Origin: Truepera sp.
GTDB taxonomy: Bacteria; Deinococcota; Deinococci; Deinococcales; Trueperaceae
Direction: 5' to 3'
Length of the DNA stretch: 64,000 nucleotides
Assembly (NCBI GenBank): GCA_965218435.1
Contig: CBDCKW010000009.1
Coordinates: 352,001 to 416,000, forward strand
A program made the translations under genes and the position numbers. Numbering within the stretch: the stretch's first letter is position 1; each line of letters begins with the position of its first letter. The notes below the pieces were generated by a model, which saw only the letters and a program-made list of their open reading frames with translations, did not search any database and was not told where the DNA came from. Positions 28,427 to 48,764 of this stretch are shown one piece after another.

Positions 28427-28903
28427 TTAGAGTTTTTTCGTCATAAAGACGCTGTTTGGATCGCCTTGGTACTCGGCAAACGGGCCGCAAACCTCAAACC
28501 CGTGCCGCAGATAGAGTGACCTTGCCGGGGTGAATTCAGGCATCGCCCCCGTTTCTAAGCTCAGCGTGTCGTAACCCCGCCGCTCGGCCTCGCTGACGAT
28601 GTGCGCTAACATCTTTTTAGCGACGCCCCGGCGACGGTACGCCGGTGTTGTGCGCATTGATTTGATCTCGCCGGTCTTTGAGTCTAACTCTTTGAGTGCG
28701 CCGCAACCGAGCAGTTTACCGTTTTCCCAAATCGTCCAAAAGGTGATATCCGGTGTGCGTAGTGCTTCCAAATCCAGTGCGTGAACGCTTTCGGGCGGAG
28801 TGATGTGGTGCATGTCCTCTAAATGCTCTTGGAGCAACCCTGCGATTTCTTGCCCGCTCAAATTGTCTTGGCGTAGCTCCAGCTTAGCTGCATTAGCCTT
28901 CAT
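28427..28903 (-). CDS. GNAT family N-acetyltransferase
   Basis: PPESVHAL, GCGAL, EIKSMRT, RRRGVA, LETG, SVFMTK. Confidence 0.88.
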   Translation of the reverse strand: MKANAAKLELRQDNLSGQEIAGLLQEHLEDMHHITPPESVHALDLEALRTPDITFWTIWENGKLLGCGALKELDSKTGEIKSMRTTPAYRRRGVAKKMLAHIVSEAERRGYDTLSLETGAMPEFTPARSLYLRHGFEVCGPFAEYQGDPNSVFMTKKL

Positions 28904-31154
28904 AATCGTGCCCTAATTTAACCCGTTTGCTGAGCGCCGCGACCGGGCGCGGCAGCCACCAGTTTGCCTGCCCGAATAAGAGCATGACCGACGGTACCAA
29001 CACGAGCCGCACAAGCGTCGCGTCGAGCAAGATGGCGACGGTCAGGCCCAGCGAAAGCGTTTTAATCAGCACGACGTGCGAAAACATAAAAACGGCAAAC
29101 ACGACGCCCATCACCAGTGCCGCGCTCGTAATCACGCCCCCGGTTGCGCCGACGGCGGCGACTACCGCGTCACGGTCGGACGCGCCCTGATCGTGGTGCT
29201 CGACGACCCGTGAGACTAAAAAAACTTCGTAGTCCATACTGAGACCAAAGACGATGGCGAAGATAAAGATGGGAACGCTCGTCTCAACAAAGCCGAGACC
29301 ACCCGGCAAGCCGAACACGCCAGCGCCCCAGCCGTGCTGAAAGACGAGCGTGATGACCCCGAAGGCCGCGCCGACGGTCAGGGTGTTGAGCACAATGCTT
29401 TTAAGCGGAATTAAAATAGAGCGGAAGGCGAGCCCCAACAAGATAAACGTTGCCAGGTAGACCAGGCCGATGGCGAGCGGAAACGAGCGGTAGAGGACCC
29501 CGGCCCATTCGCGCTCGATGACCGGACTACCGCCTACTTTGGCAGACAACCCCTCGGCTGCCGCGAGGTGACGTAAGTCGGCCTCGAGCCTCGCCGCCGC
29601 TGCCGGGGTAGCGGTACTTCTGGGAAACACGCGCAGCAGGGCGTAACGCCCCGAACGGCTGAGCGTCGCTTTAGCCAGCCCTGCGAGCGGGCTCTTTTGC
29701 GCCGTCTCTGGGGTAGCGTAGTAGCTGCTGACAAACAGGGGCGGCAAGGTTCCGGCGGTAGTCGGGCTTAGGATTTGAACGACGCCGGGTAGTCCGGCGG
29801 CTTGGCGCGAAAAGCTCGAGACCGCCCGGACCGAGTTGGGGTGATAAAAGCCGCGTACCCCAAAGTCAACGAGTACGTCGTACGAGCGGAGCAAACTGCC
29901 GAGCCCCAGCTCGTCTAAAACTTCTTGTGCCTGCCGCGTCGTCGTCTGTTCGGTCAGCCCGCGTACCCCGGAAAAAGCGACCTGCATCCCCGTCAGCGGA
30001 AACGCTAACAGCAATAAAATAAGGGTGCCGACGATGGTCCAGAGCAAGGGCCGGTTGGTGACAGCTTCGGCCCTTGCCTGCCAGAAACTACGACTACGAC
30101 TGCCGGGGGCGACCCGTGACAAACTAAACCGGTTGACTCGGCCGCCGAGCAGGGTAAACGCAGCCGGTAGCGCGGTCAGCGACACCAAGACGCTAAAGGT
30201 CATGACGATCACGCTGGCAATTCCCATCGACTGCACGAACGCCAGCGGCGGTACCAAGAGCGCCATCAGCGCGACCAAAACGGTCAAACCGCTGAAAGTC
30301 ACCGCCCGACCTGCAGTCTGCACCGTTTTTTGCGCAGCCTGCGCCGAACTCTCGCAGCGGGGCAACTCTTCGCGGAAGCGGTTGACCATCAGAAGCGCGT
30401 AGTCAATGCCGGTGGCGAGCCCCAGCATCGTAATCACGATCTGGGCAAAGGTGGCAAAGGCAAACACATGACCGAGTAAAAAAAGTACGGCCAGCGAAAG
30501 CGTCACCGACAACACCGCGACAAAAAGTGGCAGGGCGGCGGCGACGAGTGCGCCGAACGCCACGGTCAACACGAGCAAACTGAGGGGCAGACCGAAAAGC
30601 TCAGCGCGGAGCGAATCACGGGCGCTGATCTGATTGATCTCTTGGTCTACCGGGACGCTGCCGGTAAGGAGGAGCTCGAGCCCCGGCGTCTCAAACTCGG
30701 CGAGCAGCTCACGGATATGCGTCGTCGCCTCGTCAACGTTCGCTTTAGTTCGCCCCGACAGCGTGATCAGGGCCGCGCTCCGGGCGCTCTGCGAAAGTTT
30801 GGGTAGAGGGAGTGGGCTCCCTGAGGCGCTGTCGGTCACACTTTCAACCGCCCCCAGCGTGCGGAGCTTGGCGAGCACCGCCTTAAAATGGGCAGCGTTG
30901 GCCTTGTCCCCCCCGGAAGGCGCAGGTTTGACCTTAGCAACGAGGATCAGCTGAAAGTTGTTATTGCCCGGAAACTCGCGTAGCAGGGCACGCCGCACAT
31001 CTTGAGCGACGCTGTTAGGCGCCACGCCCGAGTCGGTCGTCAACACCTCTTCGGCGCGTCCGGCTAAAGGCAGCGCGACCACGAGCAAAAGCCCCCAAAG
31101 CGCCAGCACACGGCGCGGGTAGCGCGTACTCAGCCGACTCAGGAATCTAAGCAT
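28893..31154 (-). CDS. MMPL (RND-related) family transporter
   Basis: Two TM bundles; GIDYALL..RFREE, GLSMDYEVFLVSR, TGGVITSAA, DATLVRLVLVP. Confidence 0.93.
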   Translation of the reverse strand: MLRFLSRLSTRYPRRVLALWGLLLVVALPLAGRAEEVLTTDSGVAPNSVAQDVRRALLREFPGNNNFQLILVAKVKPAPSGGDKANAAHFKAVLAKLRTLGAVESVTDSASGSPLPLPKLSQSARSAALITLSGRTKANVDEATTHIRELLAEFETPGLELLLTGSVPVDQEINQISARDSLRAELFGLPLSLLVLTVAFGALVAAALPLFVAVLSVTLSLAVLFLLGHVFAFATFAQIVITMLGLATGIDYALLMVNRFREELPRCESSAQAAQKTVQTAGRAVTFSGLTVLVALMALLVPPLAFVQSMGIASVIVMTFSVLVSLTALPAAFTLLGGRVNRFSLSRVAPGSRSRSFWQARAEAVTNRPLLWTIVGTLILLLLAFPLTGMQVAFSGVRGLTEQTTTRQAQEVLDELGLGSLLRSYDVLVDFGVRGFYHPNSVRAVSSFSRQAAGLPGVVQILSPTTAGTLPPLFVSSYYATPETAQKSPLAGLAKATLSRSGRYALLRVFPRSTATPAAAARLEADLRHLAAAEGLSAKVGGSPVIEREWAGVLYRSFPLAIGLVYLATFILLGLAFRSILIPLKSIVLNTLTVGAAFGVITLVFQHGWGAGVFGLPGGLGFVETSVPIFIFAIVFGLSMDYEVFLVSRVVEHHDQGASDRDAVVAAVGATGGVITSAALVMGVVFAVFMFSHVVLIKTLSLGLTVAILLDATLVRLVLVPSVMLLFGQANWWLPRPVAALSKRVKLGHDYEG

Positions 31155-31248: not shown

Positions 31249-32040
31249 TCATACGCCAACAAACTGCTCGATAGTGCCTCTCGCCTCGCCGTTACCTGTC
31301 AAAGTTTCACCGACGAGCTGCCCGTCACGTAAAAAGACGATGCGGTCAGCGTAAAGTGCCGCCTTTGGGTCATGGGTGACCATCACGACCGTCCAACCCT
31401 CGTCTCTGACCCCGCGCTGAAACAACTCCAAAACCTCTTCGCCGGTACGCGAATCGAGGTTGCCGGTCGGTTCATCGGCCAAAATCACCGCCGGGTCGTT
31501 GATCAGGGCCCGGGCCAGCGCGACGCGTTGCTGCTGCCCCCCCGAAAGCTGCGCGGGGCGGTGCGTCAGGCGGCTTTCGATCCCCAACACAGCTGCAAGG
31601 CGGGCGAGCGTCCCTTCCGCCTCTTGGCGGCGTCCGGCAACTTCGGCGGGCAAGAGGATGTTTTCGCGGGCGCTCAAATTGGGGATCAGTTCAAACCCTT
31701 GAAAGACAAACCCCAGCTGGTCACGCCGCAACGCGGTCAGCGCGTCGTCGGACAAGTTGGCGGTCGGTTTCCCGGCAATCTCAACGGTCCCAGCGTCGGC
31801 GCTATCTAGGAGCCCCAGCAGGTGTAAAAGCGTTGATTTACCGCTTCCTGAAGGCCCCATCACGGCCACGAATTGGCCTTGGGGGACGCTCAGCTCGAGC
31901 TGAGAGAGCGCGTCAACGACTTCGCTACCCAACCGGTAGCGTTTGCTCAAGCCTTTAGCGACGAGGGCCGGAGGCCGAGTTGCAGCCGCAGACGTCTCTA
32001 TAGTCTCAGGGTTTAACGTAGTTTGCACAGAGTTCTCCAT
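31249..32040 (-). CDS. ABC transporter ATP-binding protein (LolD/MacB type)
   Basis: [26 protein letters not shown]. Real start is probably the ATG at 32040, overlapping the permease stop (TAATG). Confidence 0.93.
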
Positions 32041-34595
32041 TACTCGCCGCCCAAGGCGACGACCGGTGACAACCGGGCCGCACGCCGCGCCGGAACAAGC
32101 GACGCCAACAGGCCGACCAGCGGCGACGAGATGAGGGCGACAACGATCAGTCGCCACGGATAGATAGGCGTAATGCGGTAACCCGTCAGGGCGCTCGCGC
32201 CGGTGGTGATAACCTGCGACAACAGCAGCCCGGTCAAAACCCCAAGTACCGTGCCGAGCGCGACGACGACGATCCCTTCAGCGGTCACTAAGCGCCGAAC
32301 GCCGCGCCGGGTCAGCCCGAGCGTGCGGAGGACGGCAACCTCGTGTTGCCGGCTCGAGAGGTTCATCCCCAGGGTATTGGCGACACCTAGTGCCGCGATA
32401 AAAATAGCTAAGATAAGCAGACCGTTGGTCGTGGTAAACGTCTGCTGCGTCAGGTTCAAAATCCGGGCGCGGTAATTTTGATTGAGCGTGACGTCTAGGT
32501 AGAGTTTGGGAAACGCTTTGATGAGGGCGTCTCTAGCCGTAGCCGCATTTGCGCCGGGTGGAACAGTCATGACAAATAGGTCAGGCGAGCCGCCGCCGAA
32601 CAGCTCCGCGTCTCCCAAGCTGCCGACAAACGTTTCGCCGCCGCCGGTAAAGTCAACGACCACGCCGCCGACCTTAAAGTCTTTGTAGCCGTCCGAGGTG
32701 CGAAGCGTCGCCACGTCGCCTTTTGAGACGTTGTAGCGGTCACGGATGGTATTGGCCGCTAAGACCTCGCCGCCCGCTTTAAGTGTGGTGTAGGCGTCGG
32801 CAGCGTCACCTTGACCGGGGACAAACTGAAAACGGCCGAAGCCCGACGCAGGATTAAAGCGTTCCGGGTCTACCAGCACGAGTGCGACGCTCCGGCCCTG
32901 TGGGGCGTTTTTCGGGGTGAAGCGGACGATCCGCAGACCGATCCCGCTGACCTCGGCGACTTGGGGCACCTTTTCTTTGATCTGCGCCGCAAAATCTCTA
33001 GGGAAACTGACGGGTGAGGTGACGAACAGGTCACCGACGACCGTTGTATCGACCCAGCTCTGAATCGAATGGTTGATCCCCGCGACCATCGCGCCGACAC
33101 CGATGGTGAGCCCCATCCCGACGACGACCGCGCCGACGGCGACCCCATTGCGGGTCGCGTTGCGCAGGGAAAAGCTCGAGCCCAACCTCCCAGCGAGGCC
33201 GAAAGCCCGTTCTAAAAGAGGACTTAACACCCTGAGGGTCGGTTTCAGCAAGACGGGCGTGGCGAGGCTAAAACCGGTAAAAAGTAGGCCCATCGCCAGC
33301 GCCGCACCGAAGAGCGCGGTAAACCCCCGCCACGGCGCGAGCGAAGCTGCGACCCCGGCGGCGAGGAGCACAAAACCCCACAACGGTGCGCCGCGCAGCT
33401 CTGGGCTGCTGACCGCGCGGGCTGCGGCTAAAGGCGGCGTCCTCGAGGCGCTTCGGGCGGGCAGATATCCGGCCAGGAGCGAAATCACCACCCCGACGAG
33501 GCTGGCGAGGAGCACGGCCGGAACCGGGACGACGAGCGTCCGAAACTCGAACCCGAGTGCGACCGCGTTCAGATAGGTGATCGCCGCAGACAAACCGACG
33601 CCTAAAAGCAGCCCGAAGATGATACCTAAAATGCTGACTAAAAGAGCCTCGAGCAGCGCCAAACGCTGCACCTGCCCGCGCGTCAGGCAAACTGTTCTGA
33701 GCAGGGCAAACTCCCGCTGCCGTTCTAACACACTCGCGGCAAAGGTGTTGTACGCCATAAAACCGCCCAAGGCGATGAGCGTCGCGGCTAAAATCTGGAG
33801 CCCTGACTGGAGCGTGTCCACCACGCCGGTCGCCAAGTTGCCGCTACCTGCAGGCAACGTCACGGTGTAATCTTCGCCTAGTTTGTTTTGCAGCGCCGTC
33901 TGCACCGCGCTGCTCTGACCCTGCGCAGTCAAGACCTCGAAAAACGACGCCCGTCCGCCCAGCCGGAGCGCGTCTTGTAGGTCTTGAAGCGCCATGATCC
34001 CGACGCGGCCACCGTTGGTGGTGGCGTAACCGAGGCTGTCGTCTAACAGGCCGGTGACCCTAAGCGGCAGGTCGCCGAACTGTGCAGCAAAGGTGACCAC
34101 CTCGCCGACCTTAAAACCGCGACCCTGCGCAAACCCCTCAGCGAGCGCGACGCCTTGCGACCCCGCCTCCGGCCACGTCCCTTTCGCCAAGGCGCTCGGT
34201 AGGTCGGCCGGGACGCTCGTCACACGGCCTGACAGCTGAAAGCCCGAATCCACGCCGGGAATCACCGAATCGCTTACATCGCCGATGTCACGAACCGGCT
34301 CGGCCCTGGTATTAAGGACCGGGTAGACCTTCCGCACGCCGGGTGTGTCTCGTACGGTCGCTAGAATGTCGTCAACCGAGAAGACGGAGCGGCCTTCTGC
34401 GCCAGGGGTGACGAGCAGGTCGGCTTTTCCGGCGGCGGCTTGGAGCGCACTCGAGACGTTCGCCTCGACGTTATCGCCGATGGACAGCGTGGCTAAGACT
34501 GCCGCAATCCCGAGCGCGACCCCAAGCACGGTGGCGAAGGTACGGCTTTTGTAACGGAACAGGTTTCGGCGGGCGAGGCGCAGCAGCACAGGCAT
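32040..34595 (-). CDS. ABC transporter permease with duplicated MacB-periplasmic/FtsX domains
   Basis: 851 aa; two repeats each ending in PARxAxR; ERQREFALLR and RQHEVAVLR motifs. Confidence 0.9.
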   Translation of the reverse strand: MPVLLRLARRNLFRYKSRTFATVLGVALGIAAVLATLSIGDNVEANVSSALQAAAGKADLLVTPGAEGRSVFSVDDILATVRDTPGVRKVYPVLNTRAEPVRDIGDVSDSVIPGVDSGFQLSGRVTSVPADLPSALAKGTWPEAGSQGVALAEGFAQGRGFKVGEVVTFAAQFGDLPLRVTGLLDDSLGYATTNGGRVGIMALQDLQDALRLGGRASFFEVLTAQGQSSAVQTALQNKLGEDYTVTLPAGSGNLATGVVDTLQSGLQILAATLIALGGFMAYNTFAASVLERQREFALLRTVCLTRGQVQRLALLEALLVSILGIIFGLLLGVGLSAAITYLNAVALGFEFRTLVVPVPAVLLASLVGVVISLLAGYLPARSASRTPPLAAARAVSSPELRGAPLWGFVLLAAGVAASLAPWRGFTALFGAALAMGLLFTGFSLATPVLLKPTLRVLSPLLERAFGLAGRLGSSFSLRNATRNGVAVGAVVVGMGLTIGVGAMVAGINHSIQSWVDTTVVGDLFVTSPVSFPRDFAAQIKEKVPQVAEVSGIGLRIVRFTPKNAPQGRSVALVLVDPERFNPASGFGRFQFVPGQGDAADAYTTLKAGGEVLAANTIRDRYNVSKGDVATLRTSDGYKDFKVGGVVVDFTGGGETFVGSLGDAELFGGGSPDLFVMTVPPGANAATARDALIKAFPKLYLDVTLNQNYRARILNLTQQTFTTTNGLLILAIFIAALGVANTLGMNLSSRQHEVAVLRTLGLTRRGVRRLVTAEGIVVVALGTVLGVLTGLLLSQVITTGASALTGYRITPIYPWRLIVVALISSPLVGLLASLVPARRAARLSPVVALGGE

Positions 34596-35522: not shown

Positions 35523-35683
35523 AGCTTGCTCACTTTCTTACGTTTAGGACGAGCTTGGCTCGAGGTTGCCTGAGTAGTCTATAAAGCTCGCTGTCAAAAA
35601 GTCTGTTATATAGTATGGCGGCCCACAAAAATACAGTGTGGCGACCCATCACGGCGTCTTTAAGCGTATGTTACAACGTCTTT

Positions 35684-36646
35684 ATGACCCACCCGCTCGT
35701 CAGCGTCTGTATCTTGTCGTACAACCGTAAAACCGACCTCACCCACACCCTTCAACTACTTCAAAACGACCCTTATGGGCGGCTCGAGCTGCTCGTCGCC
35801 GATAACGCTTCGCAAGACGGCACGCCCGAACTGCTAGCGCAGGAGTTTCCCGAGGTGCGCCTCTTTACGCATCCCAAAAATATTGGGATAGACGCGCTCA
35901 ATACCGCGTTTGCGGCGGCCACAGGCGAGTACGTGCTCGTCTTAGACGATGACTCGTGGCCCGAACCGGGGACCATCGAGCGGGCCGTGGCGCGGTTTGA
36001 ACAAAACCCCGGCTTGGGGCTCATCACGTGCGATATCTTGGAGCCTAAAAGCTATAAGCGCTGGGACCTCGCGTATCTGCCGCTGCACCCCGGCTACGGG
36101 CCGCAACCGTGGTTTTGCTTTTTAGGGTGTGGGTTTTTAATCCGTACGGCGCTCTTACAAAAAATCGGTGGTTACCCCGAAGGCTTCTTTTTATACGCTA
36201 ACGAAGCGCCGGTGGCCGCTGAAGTCTTTTTGCACGGCTATGACATCGAGTTTTTACCCGACGCACGGGTGTTTCACAAGATGCCCAACCGTCAGTCGGG
36301 CTTTAGTCAGTCGCACGTCTTTTACGGCCTCCGCAACGACCTGCAAACCGCGTGGCGTTACTTTCACGGCTGGCGTTACTACGACATCTTGTTGGGCCGG
36401 ATGGTGACGGGCTTTATCTTGCTGGCGACGCTCGGCCGGGGGTCACTGAAGAGTTACTTCCGGGCGCTGCGCGAAGCGCACCGGTATCAGCGCACCACCA
36501 CGCGTCGCCCCCTCCCCAAACCGGCGATGCGGCGCGCCGTCGGCGCGTTTCACGGCACGACGCTCTCGAGCCTCCTGAGCTACCGGACGCTCCGGCGGGT
36601 TTTATGGTACGCCGGATTTTATAAAGACGGGCGGGTGGTGAGCTAA
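35684..36646 (+). CDS. GT2 family glycosyltransferase
   Basis: VSVCILSYNR, DNASQDGT, LDDD, GGY..FFLY; start probably ATG 35684. Confidence 0.9.
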   Translation: MTHPLVSVCILSYNRKTDLTHTLQLLQNDPYGRLELLVADNASQDGTPELLAQEFPEVRLFTHPKNIGIDALNTAFAAATGEYVLVLDDDSWPEPGTIERAVARFEQNPGLGLITCDILEPKSYKRWDLAYLPLHPGYGPQPWFCFLGCGFLIRTALLQKIGGYPEGFFLYANEAPVAAEVFLHGYDIEFLPDARVFHKMPNRQSGFSQSHVFYGLRNDLQTAWRYFHGWRYYDILLGRMVTGFILLATLGRGSLKSYFRALREAHRYQRTTTRRPLPKPAMRRAVGAFHGTTLSSLLSYRTLRRVLWYAGFYKDGRVVS

Positions 36647-36647
36647 C

Positions 36648-37712
36648 CTACTTGCGCTCGCCGGACTGCACTGCTTTGGGTTTGGGCTCGCGTGGCGCGG
36701 TGCCCGGTGCTGCCGCCTCAGGCGCGGCGGTCTCCGCTTCCGGCCCCAACCGTCTAGCAAGGGCTACTCCTCCGAGCGTCGGCCCCAGCAAAAACGACGA
36801 ATAAAACGCGAGCAGACGCCAGACAATCACGGCCGGAACGACGGCCGCCGGATTTCCCGAACTGAGCAGGAGCGGGAGTGAAAGCTCGTAAACACCGCTG
36901 CCGCCGGGGGTTGGGACGACGTGCGACGCGGCAAAAACCAGAAACAAGATTGCCAGCGTCGGCAAGATAGGGAGCGAGAGCCCCAAATCGGCAGCGACGA
37001 CCAAAAAAATCCCAAATACGCTGATGTGAACCCCTACCGAAAGCAGTTGTAAGAGGATGTGCTGAAACCACGTGGTCGCCGAAAGCCGCGCGACGGTCGC
37101 TGTTAAACCCAACACGAACCGGTCGGCGCGGGCGCTAAAACGCCTCAGCGGACGCCACCGAAACACCCGGCTTACCAGCGTAGTGACGACTGAAAGATGA
37201 AAAACTAGCAGGTACCAGAGCCCGAAAAAAAGGGCGCTCGCCAAAACGCCGCCTAGCAGCAGCCAGCTGCCACCTGGCAGACGCTTACTCAGATAAAGCG
37301 TCAACAACGAAGCGGGCGCAAACCAAGCGTAAAAGAGCAGATCAATCACACTCGTGTAGAGCGCAACCGACCAGGCGTGTGCAGGAGCGAGCCCGTCACG
37401 CCGGAGCATCAGCGCGATAGCGGGCGCGTTGCCACTGCCGCTCGGGGTCACCGCCGCGCTAAACGCGCCCAAGATGTGACAGCGAACCGCGCTTAAGAGC
37501 CGCAAACGGTAGCGAAGCGTCCGGGCCAACAGCAAAATTCGCAACCCGCCGGAGAAAAACGACGTGCCGAGGAGCAGGGCGCTAAAAAGGAGTGCTTTAC
37601 CCGAAAGGGAAAAGATGTCGCGCAAATCGGTGGGTTTGCCGAATAACAGCGCCGCGCCGAGACCCAAAAGACCGAAAACGAGCGAGAGTAACAGGGGTCT
37701 AACGAGCCGCAT
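36648..37712 (-). CDS. Lysylphosphatidylglycerol-synthase TM / flippase-like membrane protein (UPF0104)
   Basis: About eight TM helices; SAAVTPSGSG, PTPGGSGVYE, VWRL..FY. Confidence 0.85.
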   Translation of the reverse strand: MRLVRPLLLSLVFGLLGLGAALLFGKPTDLRDIFSLSGKALLFSALLLGTSFFSGGLRILLLARTLRYRLRLLSAVRCHILGAFSAAVTPSGSGNAPAIALMLRRDGLAPAHAWSVALYTSVIDLLFYAWFAPASLLTLYLSKRLPGGSWLLLGGVLASALFFGLWYLLVFHLSVVTTLVSRVFRWRPLRRFSARADRFVLGLTATVARLSATTWFQHILLQLLSVGVHISVFGIFLVVAADLGLSLPILPTLAILFLVFAASHVVPTPGGSGVYELSLPLLLSSGNPAAVVPAVIVWRLLAFYSSFLLGPTLGGVALARRLGPEAETAAPEAAAPGTAPREPKPKAVQSGERK

Positions 37713-37744
37713 AGGGACTCCAGTAAGGCTGGTCAAATGGAAGG

Positions 37745-38845
37745 TTAAACATCCGGCAGTTTCTCATAGACCTGCAGCGCCTGCGCAACAACTTGATCCA
37801 TGTTGTAATACTGATAATTTCCCAAACGTCCGACAAAGGTCACGTCACGGCGCGCCTCTGCTAACTTTTTATATTCGGCGTAGCGGGCGCGGTTTTCGGG
37901 GCGCGGAATCGGATAGTAAGGGTCGCCCTCCGCCTGCGGCTCCTCAAAGGTCAAGACGCTCTGCGCGTGCCGCTGCCCGGTCAGGTATTTGACCTCAGTT
38001 ACGCGGGTATAGGGCGTGTCGTTGGGCAAATTGACCGTGCCGACGGGTTGCACTTTCTCCTGGTCAAACGTTTCGTGATGAAAAGTGAGCGAACGGTAGG
38101 GGAGCGCCCCGAGTTGATGGTCAAAAAAGAGGTCAATGGGGCCGGTAAAGATCAGATGTTTATGTGGAATCATCTCTACGACGCTGCGGTAGTCGGTTTG
38201 CAGCAGCACGCTGACGTTGGGGTGCGCCAAAAGTTTTTCAAACAATCTGGTGTAGCCGTCTCTGGGCATCAGCTGATAGGTATCGGTAAAATAGCGGTCG
38301 TCGCGGTTTGTGCGGGTTGGGACCCTGGCTGTGACCGACGCGTCGAGTTCGCTGGGGTCCAGGTCCCACTGTTTGCGGGTGTACCCGCGAAAAAACTTTT
38401 CGTACAGCTCACGGCCGACTTTGGACACGACGACATCTTCGGAAGTGCGGATTTGAGCGACGGGTTCGGCGCGTTCGGCAAAAAATCGCTCGAGCTCAAA
38501 ACTGTTTAGACTGAGCCCGTAAAGCTGATTGACCGTATCCAAATTGATGGGAATCGGTACGAGCTGTCCGTCTACACTGGCCCGGACGCGGTGCTCGTAG
38601 GGCCGCCACGCCGTAAAACGTGACAGGTACTCAAAGACCTTTCGCGAGTTCGTATGAAAGATATGCGGGCCGTAGCGGTGGACTAAAATCCCGTTGTCGT
38701 CATAGTGATCGTAGGCGTTGCCACCGACGTGCGGGCGTTTATCCACAACTAGCACGCGGGCATTCCGGCCGTTTGCCAAACGCTCGGCGAGGACGCTACC
38801 CGCGAACCCGGCCCCAACAATAAGATAATCGAAACCATGAGTCAC
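37745..38845 (-). CDS. glf: UDP-galactopyranose mutase
   Basis: VGAGFAG, GGNAYD, YGPHIFHT, YTRKQW, PYRSL, PYYP, GRLG.Y.YYNMDQ. Confidence 0.96.
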   Translation of the reverse strand: MTHGFDYLIVGAGFAGSVLAERLANGRNARVLVVDKRPHVGGNAYDHYDDNGILVHRYGPHIFHTNSRKVFEYLSRFTAWRPYEHRVRASVDGQLVPIPINLDTVNQLYGLSLNSFELERFFAERAEPVAQIRTSEDVVVSKVGRELYEKFFRGYTRKQWDLDPSELDASVTARVPTRTNRDDRYFTDTYQLMPRDGYTRLFEKLLAHPNVSVLLQTDYRSVVEMIPHKHLIFTGPIDLFFDHQLGALPYRSLTFHHETFDQEKVQPVGTVNLPNDTPYTRVTEVKYLTGQRHAQSVLTFEEPQAEGDPYYPIPRPENRARYAEYKKLAEARRDVTFVGRLGNYQYYNMDQVVAQALQVYEKLPDV

Positions 38846-39036
38846 AGCGTCCGAGTATAACGTAGAGTGGGGTGGAAAAACGGTTCAAACACGCAGACAC
38901 TTCATAGTTTTTCAAATTCTGCGGAGGGCGTTCAGCTTGAGTAATGAGCGTAGTTCGCCGTAACGTGCAAGATGAAGTTACCGAATAGGAATTTTTCAGT
39001 AATTTTAAGTATTAAGTGCATTGGAGACCTATAGCT

Positions 39037-39867
39037 ATGTCAGAAGAACTTCACCCACAACATAAACGACTTGTAGAAACACTAAAAGCTGATAAATCTA
39101 TACAAAGCGAGGCTGTAGAACGGGCATTTCTAGCTGTCCCTCGTCATAAATTTTTGCCTCATCTCAGTCCAGAAGAAGCTTACGAGAATGAGAACATACC
39201 CACGAAACACAGTATCGAAGGTGAAGTTATCAGTTCAGCTTCCCATCCTGGTGTCGTAGCTGAAATTCTTGAGGAGCTCAAGTTGTCCTCAGGTCAAAAA
39301 GTCTTAGAAATCGGTGCAGGTACAGGCTTCAATGCTGCCCTCATTGCTCATCTTGTCGGGGATAAAGGAAGGGTCATTAGCCTGGACTTTGACGGTGATA
39401 TTGTCGAACAAGCTAAGGCAAACTTAGACAACGCTGGAGTAACTAACGTTGATGTTTACCGAGCGGACGGTCACTTCGGATTTGAAGCACTAGCACCTTA
39501 TGACTGTATCGTTATGTCAACGTCTTCCAATGATATCTATCCCAGCTGGTTTGGTCAGCTTAAGGAAGGCGGTTTACTTGGACTTGCTGTACGCTTTCGC
39601 GCTGAGACGGCTACTTTTGTTGTTTTTGTGAAAAAATCTGACCACTTTGCGAGCTACTCGGGCGCTCAAGCTAACTTTATGCCTATGCGTGGCGCTACAG
39701 CCGATTTCATTTCAGGTGAGGGTGAAGCTCTTCTGCGCGAACGAATTGAGTCTGGTAAGGCATTTAACAGAATTCTAGTGTATCCGAGCGGAACCCACTT
39801 ACCTCAGAATGATAGGCAAATTGCTCTGAGACGAAAATATGCTACTTTTTTATTTCAGTGGGACTAA
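39037..39867 (+). CDS. Protein-L-isoaspartate O-methyltransferase-like SAM methyltransferase
   Basis: VPRHKF, ISSASHP, VLEIGAGTGFNAA, APYD, QLKEGG; visibly more AT-rich than flanks. Confidence 0.85.
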   Translation: MSEELHPQHKRLVETLKADKSIQSEAVERAFLAVPRHKFLPHLSPEEAYENENIPTKHSIEGEVISSASHPGVVAEILEELKLSSGQKVLEIGAGTGFNAALIAHLVGDKGRVISLDFDGDIVEQAKANLDNAGVTNVDVYRADGHFGFEALAPYDCIVMSTSSNDIYPSWFGQLKEGGLLGLAVRFRAETATFVVFVKKSDHFASYSGAQANFMPMRGATADFISGEGEALLRERIESGKAFNRILVYPSGTHLPQNDRQIALRRKYATFLFQWD

Positions 39868-39988
39868 GTAGCTCTATACGAAAACGGTTAAAAAGCTTTG
39901 AGAAAGCTAGGTCGTGCAACTTCAGCAAGGTAGCGGCCAAAGTTCCGTGCCACCATCCCGAACCGGTAAGTAGCGAGTACAATCCGGT

Positions 39989-40243
39989 ATGACTGAACGA
40001 ATTGTACTCGAGCTACCCTCGGAAAGTCTGCTCAGCTTGAAGCTCAGGCCGAGTGAAATGGGGCAGGAACTGCGTTTAGCTGCAGCCATGAAACTCTATG
40101 AGTTGGGCAAACTCTCGTCAGGCGCGGCAGCTAACTTGGCCGGTATCCCTAAACCTCTATTTTTGACGAAGTTAGCGGACTACGGGATAGACAGCTTTGA
40201 CCTGACAGATGAAGCATTCGGTCTCGAAGCGCGTCTTGCCTAA
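39989..40243 (+). CDS. UPF0175 family protein (putative antitoxin)
   Basis: ELRLAAAMKLYE.GKLSSGAAA.LAG...F; overlaps the downstream PIN gene. Confidence 0.85.
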   Translation: MTERIVLELPSESLLSLKLRPSEMGQELRLAAAMKLYELGKLSSGAAANLAGIPKPLFLTKLADYGIDSFDLTDEAFGLEARLA

Positions 40244-40727
40244 GCTGATTTGTAACACCTCGCTTTTGCAATATCTCCACCAGTTAGAGCTTTTGTCTAT
40301 CTTGCCCGCGCTAGCTGAGGACATCGTTGTCCCTGAAGCGGTCGTTGCAGAGTTGGAAGCCGGACGCAGCGCAGGGGTAAATGTCCCGAAAGTTGAGGAA
40401 CTCGGCTGGCTAACTGTTCAGTTGCCAAAAAGCTTGTCAGTTCTGCCCCTAGTCACAGATTTGGGGAGAGGTGAAACGGAGGTTTTGGCGTTGGCACTCG
40501 AGCGACCGGGGTACATAACTGTTTTAGATGACAAGCTGGCGCGAAGTTTCGCCCAGACGCTAGCGGTGCCTTTTACCGGAACACTCGGTCTGCTCCTCGA
40601 CGCCAAACGAAAGCACCTCCTTGAGGCTGTCTCGCCGGTGCTTGATACACTGAGGGCGTTGGGTTTTCGGCTCAGCCCGAGTACAGTGAAGCTGATCCTC
40701 CGGTTAGCTGATGAGTCCAGCGTTTGA
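40236..40727 (+). CDS. DUF3368 PIN-like protein (putative toxin)
   Basis: ICNTS, VP.AV..EL, LG.GE.E..ALA, LDD..AR, GTLGLL..AK, GFRLS; TTG start at 40236. Confidence 0.85.
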   Translation: MPKLICNTSLLQYLHQLELLSILPALAEDIVVPEAVVAELEAGRSAGVNVPKVEELGWLTVQLPKSLSVLPLVTDLGRGETEVLALALERPGYITVLDDKLARSFAQTLAVPFTGTLGLLLDAKRKHLLEAVSPVLDTLRALGFRLSPSTVKLILRLADESSV

Positions 40728-40765
40728 AGGTTTAGAGGTCGGCTCGAGAGTTTTGCGTCTTGGCC

Positions 40766-41920
40766 CTACCCCAATCCTCGCAACCTTACAGGCGTTTCGG
40801 GAAATCCGTATGTAACAACTTCAGCGAGATAACGGCTGAAGTCTCGCATCATCGTACTGAGCTGAAGCTCTTGGCTAAGCTCAGCAACACGCTCTTGGGC
40901 TTCAGGCGCAGCAAGCTCAGTTAATGTTTTGGCCAACTGCGCCGGTTTGGGAACATACGCTCCCAACGATTTTTGCTCTAAAAACCGCACCAGCTTGGCT
41001 TCGTTGAGACCGGCGTAGCTCGAGACCAGCACCCCCCGACCGACCGCGAGCGCCTCTAAAACCGACGCCGGACCAGCTTTGCCGACCACCACGTCACACG
41101 CTGCCAGATAGTCGGCCATGTGCTCGGTAAACCCAACCACGTGGACGCGCTCGAGGGTTTCTAACCGCGCTTTTAACGCCTGATTACGCCCGGTCATCAC
41201 GATAATTTGAGGCTTTAGAGGATGGTTTAACAGGGTTTCAATCACCTTGTCGGTGCTCCGGCCTACCCCTTCACCGCCCAACGAGACGAGGCAGGTCAGG
41301 TGTTCGGCGAGGGCGAGCTTGGCCCTGGCCGCGCTCTTAGACGGCGCGTGTAAAAAGGCGTTTTGTATGGGATAGCCGATCAGGTCTATTTTGTCTGCCG
41401 GGACGCCGAAGTGCCCCAAGTCACGCAGCGCCCCTTTCGAGGGTACCGCAAACCGCTCCGCGTCCGGCTCGGCCCAGAGTGCGCTGGCGTCTAGAGGTTC
41501 GGTAGCAAAGGTCAAGATGGGGACGCGCAGTCCGTAGCGCCGCTGCGCCCTGGTCAGCGCGACGCTGACCCAGCCGTGATTGGCGACGACTAAAGCAGGG
41601 CTTAAGTCTTTTAGATGAGCCGCTGCACGCCTCGCAAACTCATCTAAAAAGAGCCGGTGATAGCGGTTGGTGAGCCTGGGAAAGGTGTCGAGGACCCGCT
41701 GCCCGTAGCGGGCACTCCACGGGTGCGCGAGCATCCACGCCCAGCTCTTTTTGTGCTGCGCATCTTGTTCGGTTAGTCCCAGTTCCAACATATAGTCTGA
41801 AATCGTCGTTTGGAACGTGCCGGGATAATAGGTTTCTAAACCCTCAGCCATCGCCCTAGCCGTCGCAACGTGACCGCCGCCGGCGGCAATCGTGGCAAAA
41901 AAGATATGCGGTTTAGTCAC
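40766..41920 (-). CDS. GT28 / MGDG-synthase-like glycosyltransferase (candidate ceramide or diacylglycerol glycosyltransferase)
   Basis: GGGHxxxAxA, G.PI...F, GGEG, GFT.HM..YLAACDVVVGKAG..SV.EA; overlaps the SDR stop. Confidence 0.88.
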   Translation of the reverse strand: MTKPHIFFATIAAGGGHVATARAMAEGLETYYPGTFQTTISDYMLELGLTEQDAQHKKSWAWMLAHPWSARYGQRVLDTFPRLTNRYHRLFLDEFARRAAAHLKDLSPALVVANHGWVSVALTRAQRRYGLRVPILTFATEPLDASALWAEPDAERFAVPSKGALRDLGHFGVPADKIDLIGYPIQNAFLHAPSKSAARAKLALAEHLTCLVSLGGEGVGRSTDKVIETLLNHPLKPQIIVMTGRNQALKARLETLERVHVVGFTEHMADYLAACDVVVGKAGPASVLEALAVGRGVLVSSYAGLNEAKLVRFLEQKSLGAYVPKPAQLAKTLTELAAPEAQERVAELSQELQLSTMMRDFSRYLAEVVTYGFPETPVRLRGLG

Positions 41921-42896
41921 GCGTGTTTAGCGCAGTGACCGTCCGCGCCAAGCCTTCTTGCCAACTGACCTCAGGGCAATACCCGAGTTCGTGGGCTGCG
42001 GCGGCAGTTGAAAAATGCACGTCGCGGCGCATCAGTGCGCCCCGGTAACGGGTCAGCGGGGGTTCCCGCGAGCCTGCCAGTGCGTACGTCCGCTCGAGCG
42101 CCTCGCCCAAAGGTTCGGTCAGTGACCCCGGCAAGCTGAGACGCGGCGCAGGGGCGTGCAACAGGGCGGCAAGCTCAGAAAACACAGCTTTCCAAGTCGG
42201 CGCACCCGCATCTGCCAGGACATACGTTCGGCCTGCAGCCTGCGGCACCGTCCCGGCCAACCACAACCCGGCAACTAAGTTTTCACTGTACGCGGTGTTG
42301 AGAACGGCTTTGCCGCCGCCCACCAGCGGAAATGTCCCCTGTTTAAGTGCCTGGGCGACGCGCACGAAGTTGGGGTCGCGGGGGCCGAAGGGCCACAGTC
42401 CAGGGCGGACGATGACAGTCTCGAGCCCCGCCCTCTTTAAGACATCTTCAGCTGCAACTTTCGAGTGCGCATAGGCGTTGATCATCCCGTCCCTGGGTTG
42501 TACACGTGGGTCGGCGTCCCGAAAGCCGCTGTAGCGGTGAACGGCGACGCTCGAGACCAACACCAACCTTTTGACGCCGGCGCGTTCCGCCTCGCGTAAA
42601 AGGTTTTCGGTTCCCTTTACATTAGCCTGCCAGAACGCTTTTTCAGGGCCGTAATCGGCGACTCTGGCGGCTGCATGATAGACCAGCTCGACGCCGTCAC
42701 AAACGCCTACCAAACTCTCCGGTTGGGTGATGTCGGCGCGGACGAGCTCGAGCCTGGGCCTACCCAATACACCTGCTAGATTATCCAACTGCCCCCAAGG
42801 GCTGACCAGCGCCCGTACCGACGCGCCCTCAGCGAGCACCTTGTCAACCAAGTGACTGCCGATAAACCCGTGTGCGCCGGTGACGAGGACTTTCAC
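41913..42896 (-). CDS. Extended SDR NAD(P)-dependent reductase (candidate oxidized-ceramide or 3-ketosphinganine reductase)
   Basis: TGAHGFIG, HAAA, NV.GT, VSS, YAHSK (YxxxK), RP...FGP. Confidence 0.88.
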   Translation of the reverse strand: MKVLVTGAHGFIGSHLVDKVLAEGASVRALVSPWGQLDNLAGVLGRPRLELVRADITQPESLVGVCDGVELVYHAAARVADYGPEKAFWQANVKGTENLLREAERAGVKRLVLVSSVAVHRYSGFRDADPRVQPRDGMINAYAHSKVAAEDVLKRAGLETVIVRPGLWPFGPRDPNFVRVAQALKQGTFPLVGGGKAVLNTAYSENLVAGLWLAGTVPQAAGRTYVLADAGAPTWKAVFSELAALLHAPAPRLSLPGSLTEPLGEALERTYALAGSREPPLTRYRGALMRRDVHFSTAAAAHELGYCPEVSWQEGLARTVTALNTRD

Positions 42897-42951
42897 ACGG
42901 TTCCCTTCATGCTGCTATCTTCACCCGGTTACCCAAATCACCACCAACCGA

Positions 42952-43629
42952 TTACCACAGCAGCCCTTGACGCCCCAAAACTGCTGCGTCCGTGACCAAG
43001 CCGATCGTGAGATGCAGCAACACGGGCCAAACTAGTGACCGTGTACGCAGCGCCAAAACTGCAAATAAAAATCCGGCGGGAAACGCCGCCAGCGTTTCGG
43101 TCAGGGGTTTGCCGACGTGAATCAGCGTTGACAGCAACACTTGTGTCCACACCGCCGCAGAAAGGCCCCACGAATCTTTAAGCGTAAAGAGTAAAAAACC
43201 TCGGTAAAAAAACTCGAACGAGATGTAGTAGAGCGCGTACAGTCCGGCCCACGCTGCAAAGTGCCAAGGCGAGAGTCCCGGCCACGACCCGGCCCACGGA
43301 TACGTCCCCTGTAACCCCGTATCACCGCTACCCAGATAGATAACGCCTGCCAGGATGAGACCGAGCCCGACGGTAAGTGGGAGGCCGAGCTGCCAGCGTC
43401 CCCAGCTTGTCGGGATACGCGCCAAGTCGCCACGCCAGAAGAGCAGAGCTGCCGGGATGATGAGTAGAAAGAGCAGCGCCCAACCGATATTGGTAACGGC
43501 TGCCGGTAACGTTCTAGGTGCGCCTCCCAGCGTCGGCCCCGGGCTGCCGAGATACCAGTAGCCGATCTGTACGAGCACGGCGGCGCTCAGATAGAGCTCG
43601 AGCCTTCTACGTTCGAGAAAAGCCGACAC
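42952..43629 (-). CDS. CPBP (Abi/CAAX protease-like) intramembrane protein
   Basis: FEFFYRG, LIHVGKP, LLH motifs; multi-TM; GTG start at 43629, 4 nt after the upstream stop. Confidence 0.85.
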   Translation of the reverse strand: MSAFLERRRLELYLSAAVLVQIGYWYLGSPGPTLGGAPRTLPAAVTNIGWALLFLLIIPAALLFWRGDLARIPTSWGRWQLGLPLTVGLGLILAGVIYLGSGDTGLQGTYPWAGSWPGLSPWHFAAWAGLYALYYISFEFFYRGFLLFTLKDSWGLSAAVWTQVLLSTLIHVGKPLTETLAAFPAGFLFAVLALRTRSLVWPVLLHLTIGLVTDAAVLGRQGLLW

Positions 43630-43633
43630 CGTA

Positions 43634-44770
43634 TTACAGCGACTTTTGAAACAAACGGTAGGTTTTGTAAAGCGTCGCGCCCGTCGCGGCAATCCCCTTA
43701 TTGATGCCGTCGTTGTCTTCTAAAATCCACGAGCACTCGCCGCGCAGATAGCCTTTGGCCTTGGTACGCTGGATCACCTCATCGATTAAGACGAGCTCGA
43801 GCCCCTTGTTGCGGTGCTCCGGGACCACGCCTAAGATCGGCAGCCGCGCCTGCTTGATCAGACGTTTGCGGTTTAGGTAGTGGATAAAGCCAAAGGGTAG
43901 CAGCCGCCCGTTCATCTTCTTAAAAACCTGATTGGCGTCGGGCAGCGTCAAGGCTAAACCGGCCACCTGACCGCCCAGCTCCAAAAAAAAGACGATTTCA
44001 GGGTCAATAATCAGCTTGAGCTCAGCGGCGAGGTGGTCAAATTCGGCTTCGGTATAGCGGACAAAACCCCAGTTGTGTTCCCAGACCTCATTATAAAAAT
44101 GTTTGAGCACGCCGAGTTCGGCCTCAAAGTTGTTTTTAAGGTCAGGTGTGCGAATACGCAGCGGGTAACGTTTTCTAGCCCGTTCCGCGAGGCGGTGCAG
44201 CCGCGAAAAGTCGCTCTCGTAGTGGTCAAACAACCACGCATAGAGGTCCTTGACTTTGATGTAGCCGGCAGCTTCGGCGTAGTGCGGGTAGGCGGGTAAG
44301 CTCGCAGGCATCATCACATACGGATCGGTGTCGAACGCGTTTAGCTGAAAGCCCGAGCCGTCGTTCATCGACGGGTTGACGGGGCCGCGAACGGCGCTTC
44401 GGCCCCTCGCTTTAGCCCAGGTTTCGACCGTCTCGAACAGTGCTTGGGCGGCCGCTTCGTCTTCGGCTTCAAAAAAACCAAAAAAGGCCAGATTGTCGTG
44501 ATGCGTGGCGTTGTGGTTGTGGTCGTCAACCGCGGCCACACGCCCGACCACCCGTCCCGAACGCTCCGCCAAAAAGAGCTCGACGACCGCGTGCTGATAA
44601 AAAGGATTTTTCTTCGGGTCAAACCGCTCGTGCTCTGACATACGCAGGGGCGGCACCCAGTGCGGGTCGTTCTTATAGAGCTCGTAGGGGTAGCCGATAA
44701 ATCTGTCCAGCTCACGTTTTCCCGACACCTGCCGAATCTGCACGGCGGGCGTTGTCAAGGTGCTCGTCAC
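43634..44770 (-). CDS. Bacterial ceramide synthase-type double-GNAT acyltransferase (bCerS/YghO-like)
   Basis: LY.NDP.WVPPL, KNPF..H, GRVAA, FGFFE, RGP.NPS.N, GY.K..DL, W..NWGFV, LGV.P..R.KG, SWILEDN, K.YR. Confidence 0.82.
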   Translation of the reverse strand: MTSTLTTPAVQIRQVSGKRELDRFIGYPYELYKNDPHWVPPLRMSEHERFDPKKNPFYQHAVVELFLAERSGRVVGRVAAVDDHNHNATHHDNLAFFGFFEAEDEAAAQALFETVETWAKARGRSAVRGPVNPSMNDGSGFQLNAFDTDPYVMMPASLPAYPHYAEAAGYIKVKDLYAWLFDHYESDFSRLHRLAERARKRYPLRIRTPDLKNNFEAELGVLKHFYNEVWEHNWGFVRYTEAEFDHLAAELKLIIDPEIVFFLELGGQVAGLALTLPDANQVFKKMNGRLLPFGFIHYLNRKRLIKQARLPILGVVPEHRNKGLELVLIDEVIQRTKAKGYLRGECSWILEDNDGINKGIAATGATLYKTYRLFQKSL

Positions 44771-44773
44771 GTT

Positions 44774-46072
44774 TTAGATAACCCCGAGCGAACGCCCAAT
44801 ACGGCCGAACGAGCTGAGCAGCCGGTCTAACTGCTCCGGCGTATGGTTCGCGTTGACGCTGGTGCGAATGATGCTCTGACCGACCGGCACACCCGGGGGC
44901 AAGGCCGGGGTGGTGAACACGCCGTCGTCCCACAGCCCTTTCCAAAAGGCCATCGCCAGGTCGTCGTCCCCGACTAACACCGGAACAATCGGCGTTTGGG
45001 AACCCAACGTGTCGAAGCCGAGCGCGTCCATCCCGTTTCGTAAGTGGGCGACGTTACGCCACAGTTTTTCGCGGTGCCCTGGTTCGGCGTCCATAATTTC
45101 CAACGCTTCTAACGCGGCGGCCATCTGCATGGCCGGGAGCGCCGCCGTAAAGATAAAGGGGCGCGCTTTATGCTTGATGTAATTGACCACTTCGCGTGGC
45201 CCACTGACAAACCCGCCGACCGAGGCGAACGATTTAGAAAAGGTGCCTAAAATCAGGTCAACCTCGCCCTCTAACCCGTAGTGCTCGGCGGTGCCGCGCC
45301 CGCTTCTACCCAACACGCCGGTCGCGTGCGCGTCGTCTACGACGACCCGCGCCCCGTAACGCTTGGCCAAGGTGACGATTTCCGGCAGCTTGGCGATATG
45401 CCCGGTCATCGAAAAAACGCCGTCGGTCACAATCATGCGGCCACCGGGCTTATCGGCGTCGCGTTGCAGCAAGGTCTCGAGTTCAGCTAAATTATGGTGT
45501 TCATATTTGCGCAGCGTCCCGTAAGAGAGCCGCGCCCCGTCGTATAAACAGGCGTGGTTTTCACGGTCGAAGTAAAAAATATCGTGGCGTCCGGCAATCG
45601 CACTTAACACAGCCAGCGACCCTAAAAATCCGGCGCTAAAGGTCAGCGCGGACTCGGCGCGTAAAAATTCAGCTAAGCGGCGCTCGAGGGCCTCGTGCAG
45701 AGTCAGCGTCCCGGTCAAAAAGCGCGACCCGGTACACGACGTGCCGAAATTGTCTAACGCCCGCCGCGACGCCGTTTTAAGACGCGTATCTTGCGTTAAG
45801 CCCAAATAATCGTTTGAACCCGTGATAATCATCTCGCGCCCGTCTACGACCACCGTACCGCCGCGCTGCTCGGCAATCGGCTTGAAGTAGGGGTGCATCC
45901 CGGCGGCCACGGCTTCGTCGGCGCGGGTAAAGCTGTAGGCTTTGCTAAAAATATCACCCGGCCGCGTCGCAAGGTGAGCCGTATCAGGTTTGGGCGGCCC
46001 GGCCTGAGGGGGCGCTTCTGAAACTTCCGGGCTGATCGTCTTAGTAACGGTATCAACTGCTGTGTCTGACAA
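44774..46072 (-). CDS. spt: Serine palmitoyltransferase (PLP-dependent alpha-oxoamine synthase)
   Basis: PYFKPI N-terminus, GSNDYLGL, GTSCTGSRFL.GT, H..LYDG, DGVFSM, D.AH, GTFSKS (PLP Lys), ARPFIFTA. GGAGG 6 nt before TTG 46072. Confidence 0.8.
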   Translation of the reverse strand: MSDTAVDTVTKTISPEVSEAPPQAGPPKPDTAHLATRPGDIFSKAYSFTRADEAVAAGMHPYFKPIAEQRGGTVVVDGREMIITGSNDYLGLTQDTRLKTASRRALDNFGTSCTGSRFLTGTLTLHEALERRLAEFLRAESALTFSAGFLGSLAVLSAIAGRHDIFYFDRENHACLYDGARLSYGTLRKYEHHNLAELETLLQRDADKPGGRMIVTDGVFSMTGHIAKLPEIVTLAKRYGARVVVDDAHATGVLGRSGRGTAEHYGLEGEVDLILGTFSKSFASVGGFVSGPREVVNYIKHKARPFIFTAALPAMQMAAALEALEIMDAEPGHREKLWRNVAHLRNGMDALGFDTLGSQTPIVPVLVGDDDLAMAFWKGLWDDGVFTTPALPPGVPVGQSIIRTSVNANHTPEQLDRLLSSFGRIGRSLGVI

Positions 46073-47354: not shown

Positions 47355-47623
47355 ACAGTGCGGAACTCGGTAGTTTAGCGCCACTCTGCTGCGCAAGAGA
47401 AACTGAGTTGATGCGAACCAGTCCCTGATATATCCAAATATCCCTAAACCACCGAGCACTTATTTCCGAGTAGGCAAAAGCTGCCTGCGTAACAAACTCG
47501 TTAGGAAGTTTCGCAAACCGGTCGCAACTTACCCGCAAGCGACTCTGCTTAAACTTTGCTGGGGGCGTCCGGGGTCAGTGGGGTGACTTGAACAGCTCGG
47601 AGCTGCGAGAAGAGGGGAGCACC

Positions 47624-48571: not shown

Positions 48572-48764
48572 GTTTGTTTACAAAGCTGGAGCCAGCGGCA
48601 AAGCCCTTTGGCCTCGCCCGTCGAAGTCTTAGCTCCCTGAAACACAGCTAGAGCTGAAAAAATACCGCATAGCGGTGTCGGACTTTTACAGTTGCTACAT
48701 TCACAATGAACTTATGAAGAGACGCACGTCACACGGCCTTCACTTTTTCTCAGTACGATAAAGT

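Follow-up and report, generated by a model that had tools for sequence, protein, structure and literature searches.

The closest described system to the locus reported here is the ceramide pathway of Caulobacter and Rhodobacteria (Spt, bCerS, CerR, AcpR and AasR), with which we compared it through the orthologues of Escherichia coli BL21(DE3). In the Caulobacter model acylation precedes reduction, an order that PMC11087976, in the portion available to us, calls disputed; the same portion describes the export step of sphingolipids as unidentified. The best solved relative of the first enzyme is the serine palmitoyltransferase (SPT) of Sphingobacterium multivorum (PDB 8GUH and 3A2B), and uncharacterised records show the operon spt-bcerS-cerR in Rubrobacter, Acidobacteriota and Myxococcus. 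Here we describe a five-gene operon in a stretch of 64,000 nucleotides from Truepera sp. (assembly GCA_965218435.1, contig CBDCKW010000009.1, positions 352,001 to 416,000 of the forward strand), the whole of which is referred to as the window. In order, the operon encodes an SPT-like alpha-oxoamine synthase (gene 1), a tandem GNAT N-acyltransferase of the bCerS/YghO family (gene 2), a CPBP intramembrane protein, an extended short-chain dehydrogenase/reductase (SDR) and a family 28 glycosyltransferase (GT28). From homology and gene linkage, the cluster to which these genes belong probably directs the synthesis and export of a ceramide-type glycolipid, namely a branched glycosyl-dihydroceramide.

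All five open reading frames (ORFs) run on the minus strand, separated successively by 3, 4 and 55 nt and ending in an 8-nt overlap, and their positions, spacing and motifs (PYF, GTSCTGSRFL, GTFSKS, DPHWVPPL, NWGFV and SWILEDN), as first described in the original prediction, were all reproduced. The Deinococcota origin read from the sequence was likewise borne out, the nearest named relatives of the locus genes being Trueperaceae (87% identity for gene 2), in a host genome of 4.8 Mb in 9 contigs with a completeness of 100%. A survey of synteny, which had been put forward as a check, covered 35 loci of the same family picked by hand across genera because they had matches. The five genes stand in order in 21 of these, gt28 alone is absent from 3, the CerR type occurs in 5 and the remaining 6 are split or partial; with the same order in so many loci, the arrangement is not a product of chance. 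Like the Caulobacter-type pathway the cluster combines a synthase (36% identity), an acyltransferase (33%) and an extended SDR. Unlike it, the cluster has an SDR from outside the CerR clade that is paired with a CPBP protein, the genome gives no match to AcpR and only weak matches to AasR, and spt and bcerS share one operon, whereas cerS is always in a separate operon according to the available text of PMC11324152. The Trueperaceae cluster also carries GT28, flippase-like and MmpL genes, where the Caulobacter type has second copies of LptF/G.

In the pathway that we propose, the synthase would join L-serine and a branched acyl thioester into a 3-keto long-chain base, as strong homology predicts. 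The tandem GNAT, for which homology is also strong, would then N-acylate this base to an oxidized ceramide, an order adopted from the Caulobacter model (PMC11087976, available portion). The SDR, which probably docks on the CPBP membrane protein or receives its substrate from it, would reduce the 3-keto group, as the replacement of genes among relatives suggests, with a CerR-type enzyme presumably acting alone in a minority of the family. Judged from its linkage, GT28 would place a hexose on the 1-OH, the Glf, GT2 and GT4 genes may elaborate the head group in some lineages, and the flippase-like and MmpL proteins would move the lipid outward. As the main chains of Truepera radiovictrix are anteiso-C15, anteiso-C17 and iso-C17 according to the part of PMC3072082 available, the expected products would be d17:0 and d19:0 dihydroceramides and their hexosides, with computed ions near m/z 512.504, 540.535 and 568.566 for dihydroceramides from d17:0/15:0 to d19:0/17:0 and near 674.557, 702.588 and 730.619 for the hexosides. 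No dedicated acyl carrier protein (ACP) gene adjoins the operon, as had been noted from the sequence, and the sole ACP gene of the genome lies outside the window; given this single gene and the lack of an AcpR match, the acyl donor could be acyl-CoA or the housekeeping ACP.

The SPT-like synthase and the bCerS-family acyltransferase

Gene 1 is SPT-like on strong homology, and the formation of a 3-keto base from serine is its predicted activity. In a PDB sequence search its closest solved structure was the S. multivorum SPT at 362 bits, followed by 8-amino-7-oxononanoate synthase (AONS)/KBL at 297, E. coli-type Kbl at 261, cysteate enzymes at 255 and 234 and BioF at 206; HemA, absent from our trees, scored lower than SPT in both the PDB and NCBIfam searches. 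Trees of 93 and 47 rows were built as subsets of 139 collected rows, together with a separate 23-row mixture-model tree. In the 47-row tree a group supported at 92/99 unites gene 1, the Spt of E. coli BL21 and homologues from Sphingomonas and Myxococcus, separate from the Kbl-like (99/98) and cysteate-type (100/100) clades, and approximately unbiased (AU) tests rejected a grouping of its clade with Kbl (p 0.014) or with BioF (p 0.002). Both the proposal that the synthase lies nearer to bacterial SPTs than to BioF/Kbl and the phylogeny suggested to examine it thus gave the same answer. The databases read the protein differently, as the T. radiovictrix homologue is labelled glycine C-acetyltransferase in UniRef and relatives are labelled AONS in JGI. 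A Kbl or BioF with unrelated neighbours would be in keeping with the genome showing no alpha-oxoamine synthase besides gene 1; however, gene 1 adjoins bcerS, a second, Kbl-like paralogue accompanies the spt-like gene in many relatives, and E. coli BioB and BioD searched against the genome gave no match. Together with the AU tests this leaves such an identity scarcely credible, and we flag the Kbl/BioF labels as mislabels.

Several observations on the synthase weigh against our interpretation. Gene 1 falls under every SPT equivalog cut-off in NCBIfam (428 bits against 640 for the best model, SerpalmtaseCFB, then 374 against 500 and 307 against 670), these models being phylum-specific, with the CFB cut-off reached in 0 of 41 genomes of one FCB-group phylum. 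Aligned to the S. multivorum enzyme, it retains the serine and pyridoxal phosphate contacts named in the available part of PMC10196870 (N52, G80, S81, H138, S185, H213, T241, S243, K244 and A274). Unlike that enzyme, it lies under the Bacteroidota equivalog cut-off, its clade has N117 replaced by Ser, S140 by Cys, D189 by His and M271 by Ile, and gene 1 also differs at S273, which is Thr. Cys at 140 and the loss of N117 are common to this clade and the cysteate enzymes, an AU test did not reject a grouping with the cysteate type (p 0.16), and in the 23-row tree the SPT group is not one supported clade and the deep nodes are unsupported. Such active-site changes might be expected of a synthase that takes alanine, glycine or cysteate and leads to a 1-deoxy- or sulfono-type amino-lipid, with CPBP/SDR chemistry unlike that of CerR, and, according to the available text of PMC13692747, no small set of residues fixes substrate choice in these synthases. 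Four of the five cysteate marks are nonetheless absent from gene 1 (Ala82, Glu187, Ala249 and Lys280), its score to SPT exceeds those to both cysteate enzymes, and the 23-row tree also keeps gene 1 apart from the cysteate-type clade, a label that in our trees denotes residue marks taken from PMC13692747 (same text) rather than named sequences. Furthermore, the linked glycosyltransferase would imply that the 1-OH is free, a condition that serine alone would satisfy. Serine is our predicted substrate, and we give another amino acid a small chance.

Gene 2 was compared with YghO of E. coli BL21, which PMC9386255, as far as available, names as orthologous to Caulobacter CC_1154, rather than with the Caulobacter protein itself. 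Gene 2 and YghO align at 33% over 377 aa (E 2e-75), and gene 2 is the only YghO match in the genome. A PDB sequence search with this GNAT returned no relative, while its predicted model has a tandem-GNAT fold (predicted local distance difference test score 87) whose top Foldseek match is also a tandem GNAT (E 6e-14). Full-length reciprocal homology, fold and family motifs all place it in the bCerS/YghO family, where the original prediction had put it, and N-acylation of a long-chain base is strongly predicted by this homology. In 80 loci with a bCerS match, drawn from many phyla, an oxoamine-synthase match lies within 8 kb in 44 and an SDR match nearby in 37; among these loci, CPBP and GT28 are present only in that of Trueperaceae.

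A CPBP and SDR pair as a putative substitute for CerR

The phylum was surveyed in 364 genomes of families f1 to f6. Family f1 (127 genomes, including G325, on which none of our statements depends by itself) was taken as Trueperaceae from its nearest named relatives, and f2, f4 and f5 are presumed to be the Deinococcus, Marinithermus and Thermus lineages. At strict limits (1e-70 and 1e-100) f1 has bcerS in 101 genomes, spt in 98, both in 97 and either in 102, the last being termed core genomes below.

The original prediction set the SDR beside CerR, a comparison that holds in part. It is an extended SDR within the cluster, with the TGxxGxxG, Ser and YxxxK cofactor and catalytic motifs intact, and it is the top genome match (197 versus 163 bits) of a profile of 53 SDRs adjacent to spt or bcerS in other phyla. 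Identity with CerR does not stand: the protein shares only 28% of its residues with CerR of E. coli BL21, its clade (100/100) lies apart from the one (19 rows, 89/94) to which E. coli CerR belongs, and in other members of the family a CerR-type gene takes its place. A position as sister to the Trueperaceae CerR-type genes was not rejected (p 0.17). Window-type SDRs matched in 88 of 127 f1 genomes and in 82 after filtering, which dropped three matches at or below 36% identity and three copies of 40-42% in genomes without the core genes. The CerR-type gene, which minority Trueperaceae operons share with Rubrobacter, was found in 15 f1 genomes with six candidates scored per genome, and the two types overlap in a single genome. 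The CPBP gene tracks the SDR in its occurrence, being present in 86 of 127 f1 genomes, in 82 of 82 with the SDR and in 2 of 15 with the CerR type; of 28 metagenome loci that carry this CPBP, 26 have the SDR directly after it. As the two reductase types are nearly exclusive and CPBP accompanies every SDR, CPBP and SDR together seem to stand in for CerR in most Trueperaceae.

A CPBP-fold protein as partner in lipid chemistry has a precedent in LnsB, and in Staphylococcus the LnsAB and SagB-SpdC pairs likewise join an envelope enzyme to such a protein in the membrane (PMC7387801, available portion). The best fold matches of the Trueperaceae protein are SpdC (Z 15.4) and Rce1 (Z 12.8). LnsB and SpdC are without the catalytic residues, whereas the Trueperaceae CPBP keeps most of them, E139, R143, H171, E178, H206 and D214 being invariant in 41 of 41 rows and the first Glu of the EExxxR motif being replaced by Phe. 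The Rubrobacter, Acidobacteriota and Myxococcus loci have no CPBP, window-type SDR or GT28, this CPBP was not found in the five f3 genomes searched, a plasmid search returned no CPBP match and three distant SDR matches, and in a protein-cluster atlas the two proteins fell only in generic Rce1-like and 3Beta_HSD clusters.

Two points count against the SDR as the ceramide reductase: it is only marginally the best genome match of E. coli CerR (76 versus 72 bits), and neither reductase was seen in 6 of the 102 core genomes. A nucleotide-sugar epimerase feeding GT28 would account for Pfam Epimerase and HpnA being its highest-scoring models and for the pairing of SDR and gt28 where the operon splits (G264 and G266), the ceramide then staying oxidized or being reduced by another enzyme. 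Yet OleD, a long-chain 3-oxo reductase, is the second-best score, the SDR substitutes for the CerR-type gene rather than accompanying it, and GT28 occurs with CerR-type genes and no such SDR in G262, G263, G337 and G348, so we hold an epimerase to be very improbable and favour the keto reductase.

Two genomes depart from the pattern. In G290 (97% complete; L120, C1:1559000-1573000) spt, bcerS and the flippase-like gene adjoin, and neither reductase type nor this GT28 was found, so the product there may be an oxidized ceramide or a third reductase may operate. In G292 (L124:4754-6909) the SDR-GT28 pair remains beside the ABC permease with spt and bcerS gone, and this SDR copy has lost the Gly motif and the catalytic Lys.

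Predicted glycosylation and export, and the wider cluster

The structurally solved relatives of GT28 use diacylglycerol (MGD1, E 4e-23, and a processive diacylglycerol glucosyltransferase, E 5e-12), which speaks against a ceramide acceptor. Like MGD1 and UgtP, it belongs to the GT28 family and has the N-terminal GGGH motif; unlike these proteins, whose known acceptor is diacylglycerol, it lies far under the family cut-offs, reaching 78 bits with the NCBIfam diglucosyl-diacylglycerol synthase model. UgtP of Staphylococcus aureus can glucosylate ceramide in vitro.

GT28, the flippase-like protein and MmpL might serve a glycerolipid or long-chain-diol glycolipid and be merely co-located with spt, bcerS and SDR genes that make ceramide. 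Besides the solved relatives, this would fit the separation of GT28 from the operon in G258, G259 and G341 and the lipids of T. radiovictrix, in which complex glycolipids and 1,2-diols are present and polar lipids are not characterised in detail, as described in the available part of PMC3072082. Against it, GT28 is found in 94 of the 102 core genomes and in 3 of the 25 others, and its close homologues (E <= 1e-54) came only from f1 and f3, families that bear spt and bcerS, the 54 matches in 121 genomes of f2, f4 and f5 all having E >= 4e-26. The flippase-like gene (93 of 102 versus 2 of 25) and the MmpL gene (87 of 102 versus 4 of 25) are distributed similarly. A caution that counts against our interpretation is that these co-occurrence figures overstate independence, because linked genes vanish jointly from incomplete assemblies and kin have a common history. 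Overall we judge mere co-location unlikely, and a GT28 acting on ceramide remains the preferred assignment.

The original prediction ended the cluster at gt28; the five-gene operon stands, and the cluster runs beyond it (Table 1). The flippase-like gene comes next after gt28 in 17 of the 21 loci with all five genes, often with the ABC permease, ATPase and MmpL genes next, and MmpL remains beside bcerS/gt28 in rearranged loci of G321, G323, G324 and G349. The ABC permease is retained in G292 and may be only a neighbour. The accessory glf gene, which could supply galactofuranose, is part of the cluster in 4 of the 35 own-family loci and in 5 of the 28 from metagenomes, and GT2 stands next to the cluster in 6 of the 35. 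In G357 gt28 directly adjoins glf, while in the window a low-GC stretch of 1.9 kb separates them; blastn aligned none of this stretch to G361, a close relative that matches on both flanks and carries a different insert there. An Rfam scan of the window gave no match, and promoter and terminator scans gave signal close to shuffle levels.

Table 1. Features of the Truepera cluster, in positions of the window
Feature	Position	Strand	Remarks
SPT-like alpha-oxoamine synthase	44774..46072	-	432 aa; TTG start at 46072, GGAGGA at 46083-46078
bCerS/YghO-family tandem GNAT N-acyltransferase	43634..44770	-	378 aa; Pfam GNAT (weak)
CPBP/Rce1-like intramembrane protein, putative SDR partner	42952..43629	-	225 aa; Pfam Rce1-like
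Extended SDR, 3-beta-HSD/OleD type, putative 3-keto reductase	41913..42896	-	327 aa; Pfam Epimerase/3Beta_HSD
GT28 lipid glycosyltransferase, MGD1/UgtP-like	40766..41920	-	384 aa; Pfam Glyco_tran_28_C
Variable low-GC (0.48) stretch interrupting the cluster	38866..40764		between gt28 and glf
DUF3368 gene in low-GC stretch	40209-40727	+	
PCMT-like methyltransferase gene in low-GC stretch	39016-39867	+	
UDP-galactopyranose mutase Glf, accessory	37745..38845	-	NCBIfam above cut-off
LPG_synthase_TM flippase-like membrane protein	36648..37736	-	Pfam PF03706 above cut-off
GT2 glycosyltransferase, convergent, accessory	35615..36646	+	Pfam Glycos_transf_2
MacB/FtsX-type ABC permease, conserved neighbour	32040..34595	-	Pfam FtsX and MacB_PCD
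ABC ATPase, LolD/MacB-like, start uncertain	31249..32157	-	
MmpL-family lipid exporter candidate	28893..31154	-	best NCBIfam MmpL3, 313 bits, under cut-off

Distribution in Deinococcota and Rubrobacter

Gene 2 matched in 106 of 127 f1 genomes, 19 of 19 in f3 and the single f6 genome. None of the 23 genomes of f4 or the 68 of f5 matched, and two of the 125 in f2 did so weakly (E ~5e-4). Identity to gene 1 is bimodal, at 57-88% in f1, f3 (18 of 19) and f6 and at most ~45% in f2, f4 and f5, so that neither core gene was found at locus-like similarity in the 216 genomes of the latter three families. This weakens the earlier alternative of a route to related alkylamine or diol lipids, and we reject the locus as the source of those lipids in Deinococcus and Thermus because f2, f4 and f5 are without the core genes. 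Loss within f1 appears real, as several near-complete genomes (G292, G298, G300, G347 and G352) are without both genes; the bcerS of G337 is interrupted. In T. radiovictrix DSM 17093 the core proteins are consecutive, ADI14675.1 (84%) and ADI14676.1 (67%).

Family f3 (G126-G144) has bCerS in 19 of 19 genomes and Spt in 18 of 19, unlinked, with spt after an asparaginase II gene in three loci. In genus g26 (G321-G324, 92-96% complete) a distant bCerS adjoins GT4, flippase-like, GT28 and MmpL genes (G321:C310:3989-11811, L123) with no Spt match in four of four genomes; this tells against our interpretation, and long-chain-base salvage or another amine acceptor may apply there.

The nearest genes outside the phylum are those of Rubrobacter (Spt 70-72%, bCerS 58-61%). 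Their clade is sister to that of Deinococcota in the 47-row and 23-row trees; nesting of Rubrobacter within Trueperaceae, seen in the 93-row tree, is not upheld by the other two. Transfer between Rubrobacter and Deinococcota is likely on these trees, in either direction, since the trees differ on this point. In Rubrobacteraceae the spt-bcerS-cerR loci closest to the Trueperaceae genes are L006 and L002-L005, and a sulfatase-domain gene follows in L249. A literature search for Rubrobacter ceramide found no paper.

On a broader reading Trueperaceae would build a glycosphingolipid into their envelope by a new route, which would join an Rce1-fold intramembrane enzyme and a 3-beta-HSD-type SDR in a two-part ceramide reductase or remodelling unit, with glycosylation by GT28 and export by MmpL. 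The pathway would be old in Deinococcota, would have disappeared from the lineages of Deinococcus and Thermus and would have been exchanged with Rubrobacter; taken whole, we put this reading forward only tentatively and with some doubt.

The type of pathway is already known. Among the loci examined, only those of Trueperaceae showed the CPBP and SDR substitution and the link to GT28 and MmpL. A literature search, which did not cover the supplementary phylum lists of two key surveys, found no report of a sphingolipid or ceramide pathway in Deinococcota. To our knowledge, no Deinococci stand in the phylum list of the 2022 paper that defined bCerS and CerR. The string "Deinococc" has 0 occurrences in the available main text of PMC11334938, its preprint, PMC9386255 and PMC13028669. 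It is fairly unlikely that Truepera is already named in published phylum lists, and the surprise is reduced because gene-based surveys already claim the pathway in 40 phyla (PMC11334938, available portion). If the prediction is true, one more phylum would join the bacterial sphingolipid makers, T. radiovictrix DSM 17093, a type strain in culture, being among those predicted, and Deinococcota envelopes would divide into lineages with and without the pathway. The proposed new parts would be the CPBP and SDR substitute for CerR, a ceramide-acting GT28 and MmpL/flippase export. On the broader, more tentative reading, sphingolipids would link two unrelated groups tolerant of radiation and desiccation, Deinococcota and Rubrobacter.

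Elsewhere in the window, a low-GC ORF at 21593-22669 is presumably an IS4/IS5-type transposase. After purQ, at 47588-50045, come a gene for a TupA-like ATP-grasp protein and a lipoprotein-like ORF of 426 aa, the latter with no Pfam or NCBIfam match. Just left of the window (C9:345300-350900; L248:8679-15812) lie lpxD, lpxC, an oxidoreductase gene, fabZ and lpxA, together with an ABC gene resembling MsbA and a gene weakly similar to LpxB. The LpxC of this locus scores above cut-off, which the Thermus thermophilus and Deinococcus radiodurans controls do not reach, and searches of the genome with LpxB, LpxK and WaaA of E. coli gave no match. This gene content suggests a lipid A-like lipid without Kdo alongside the predicted ceramide pathway.

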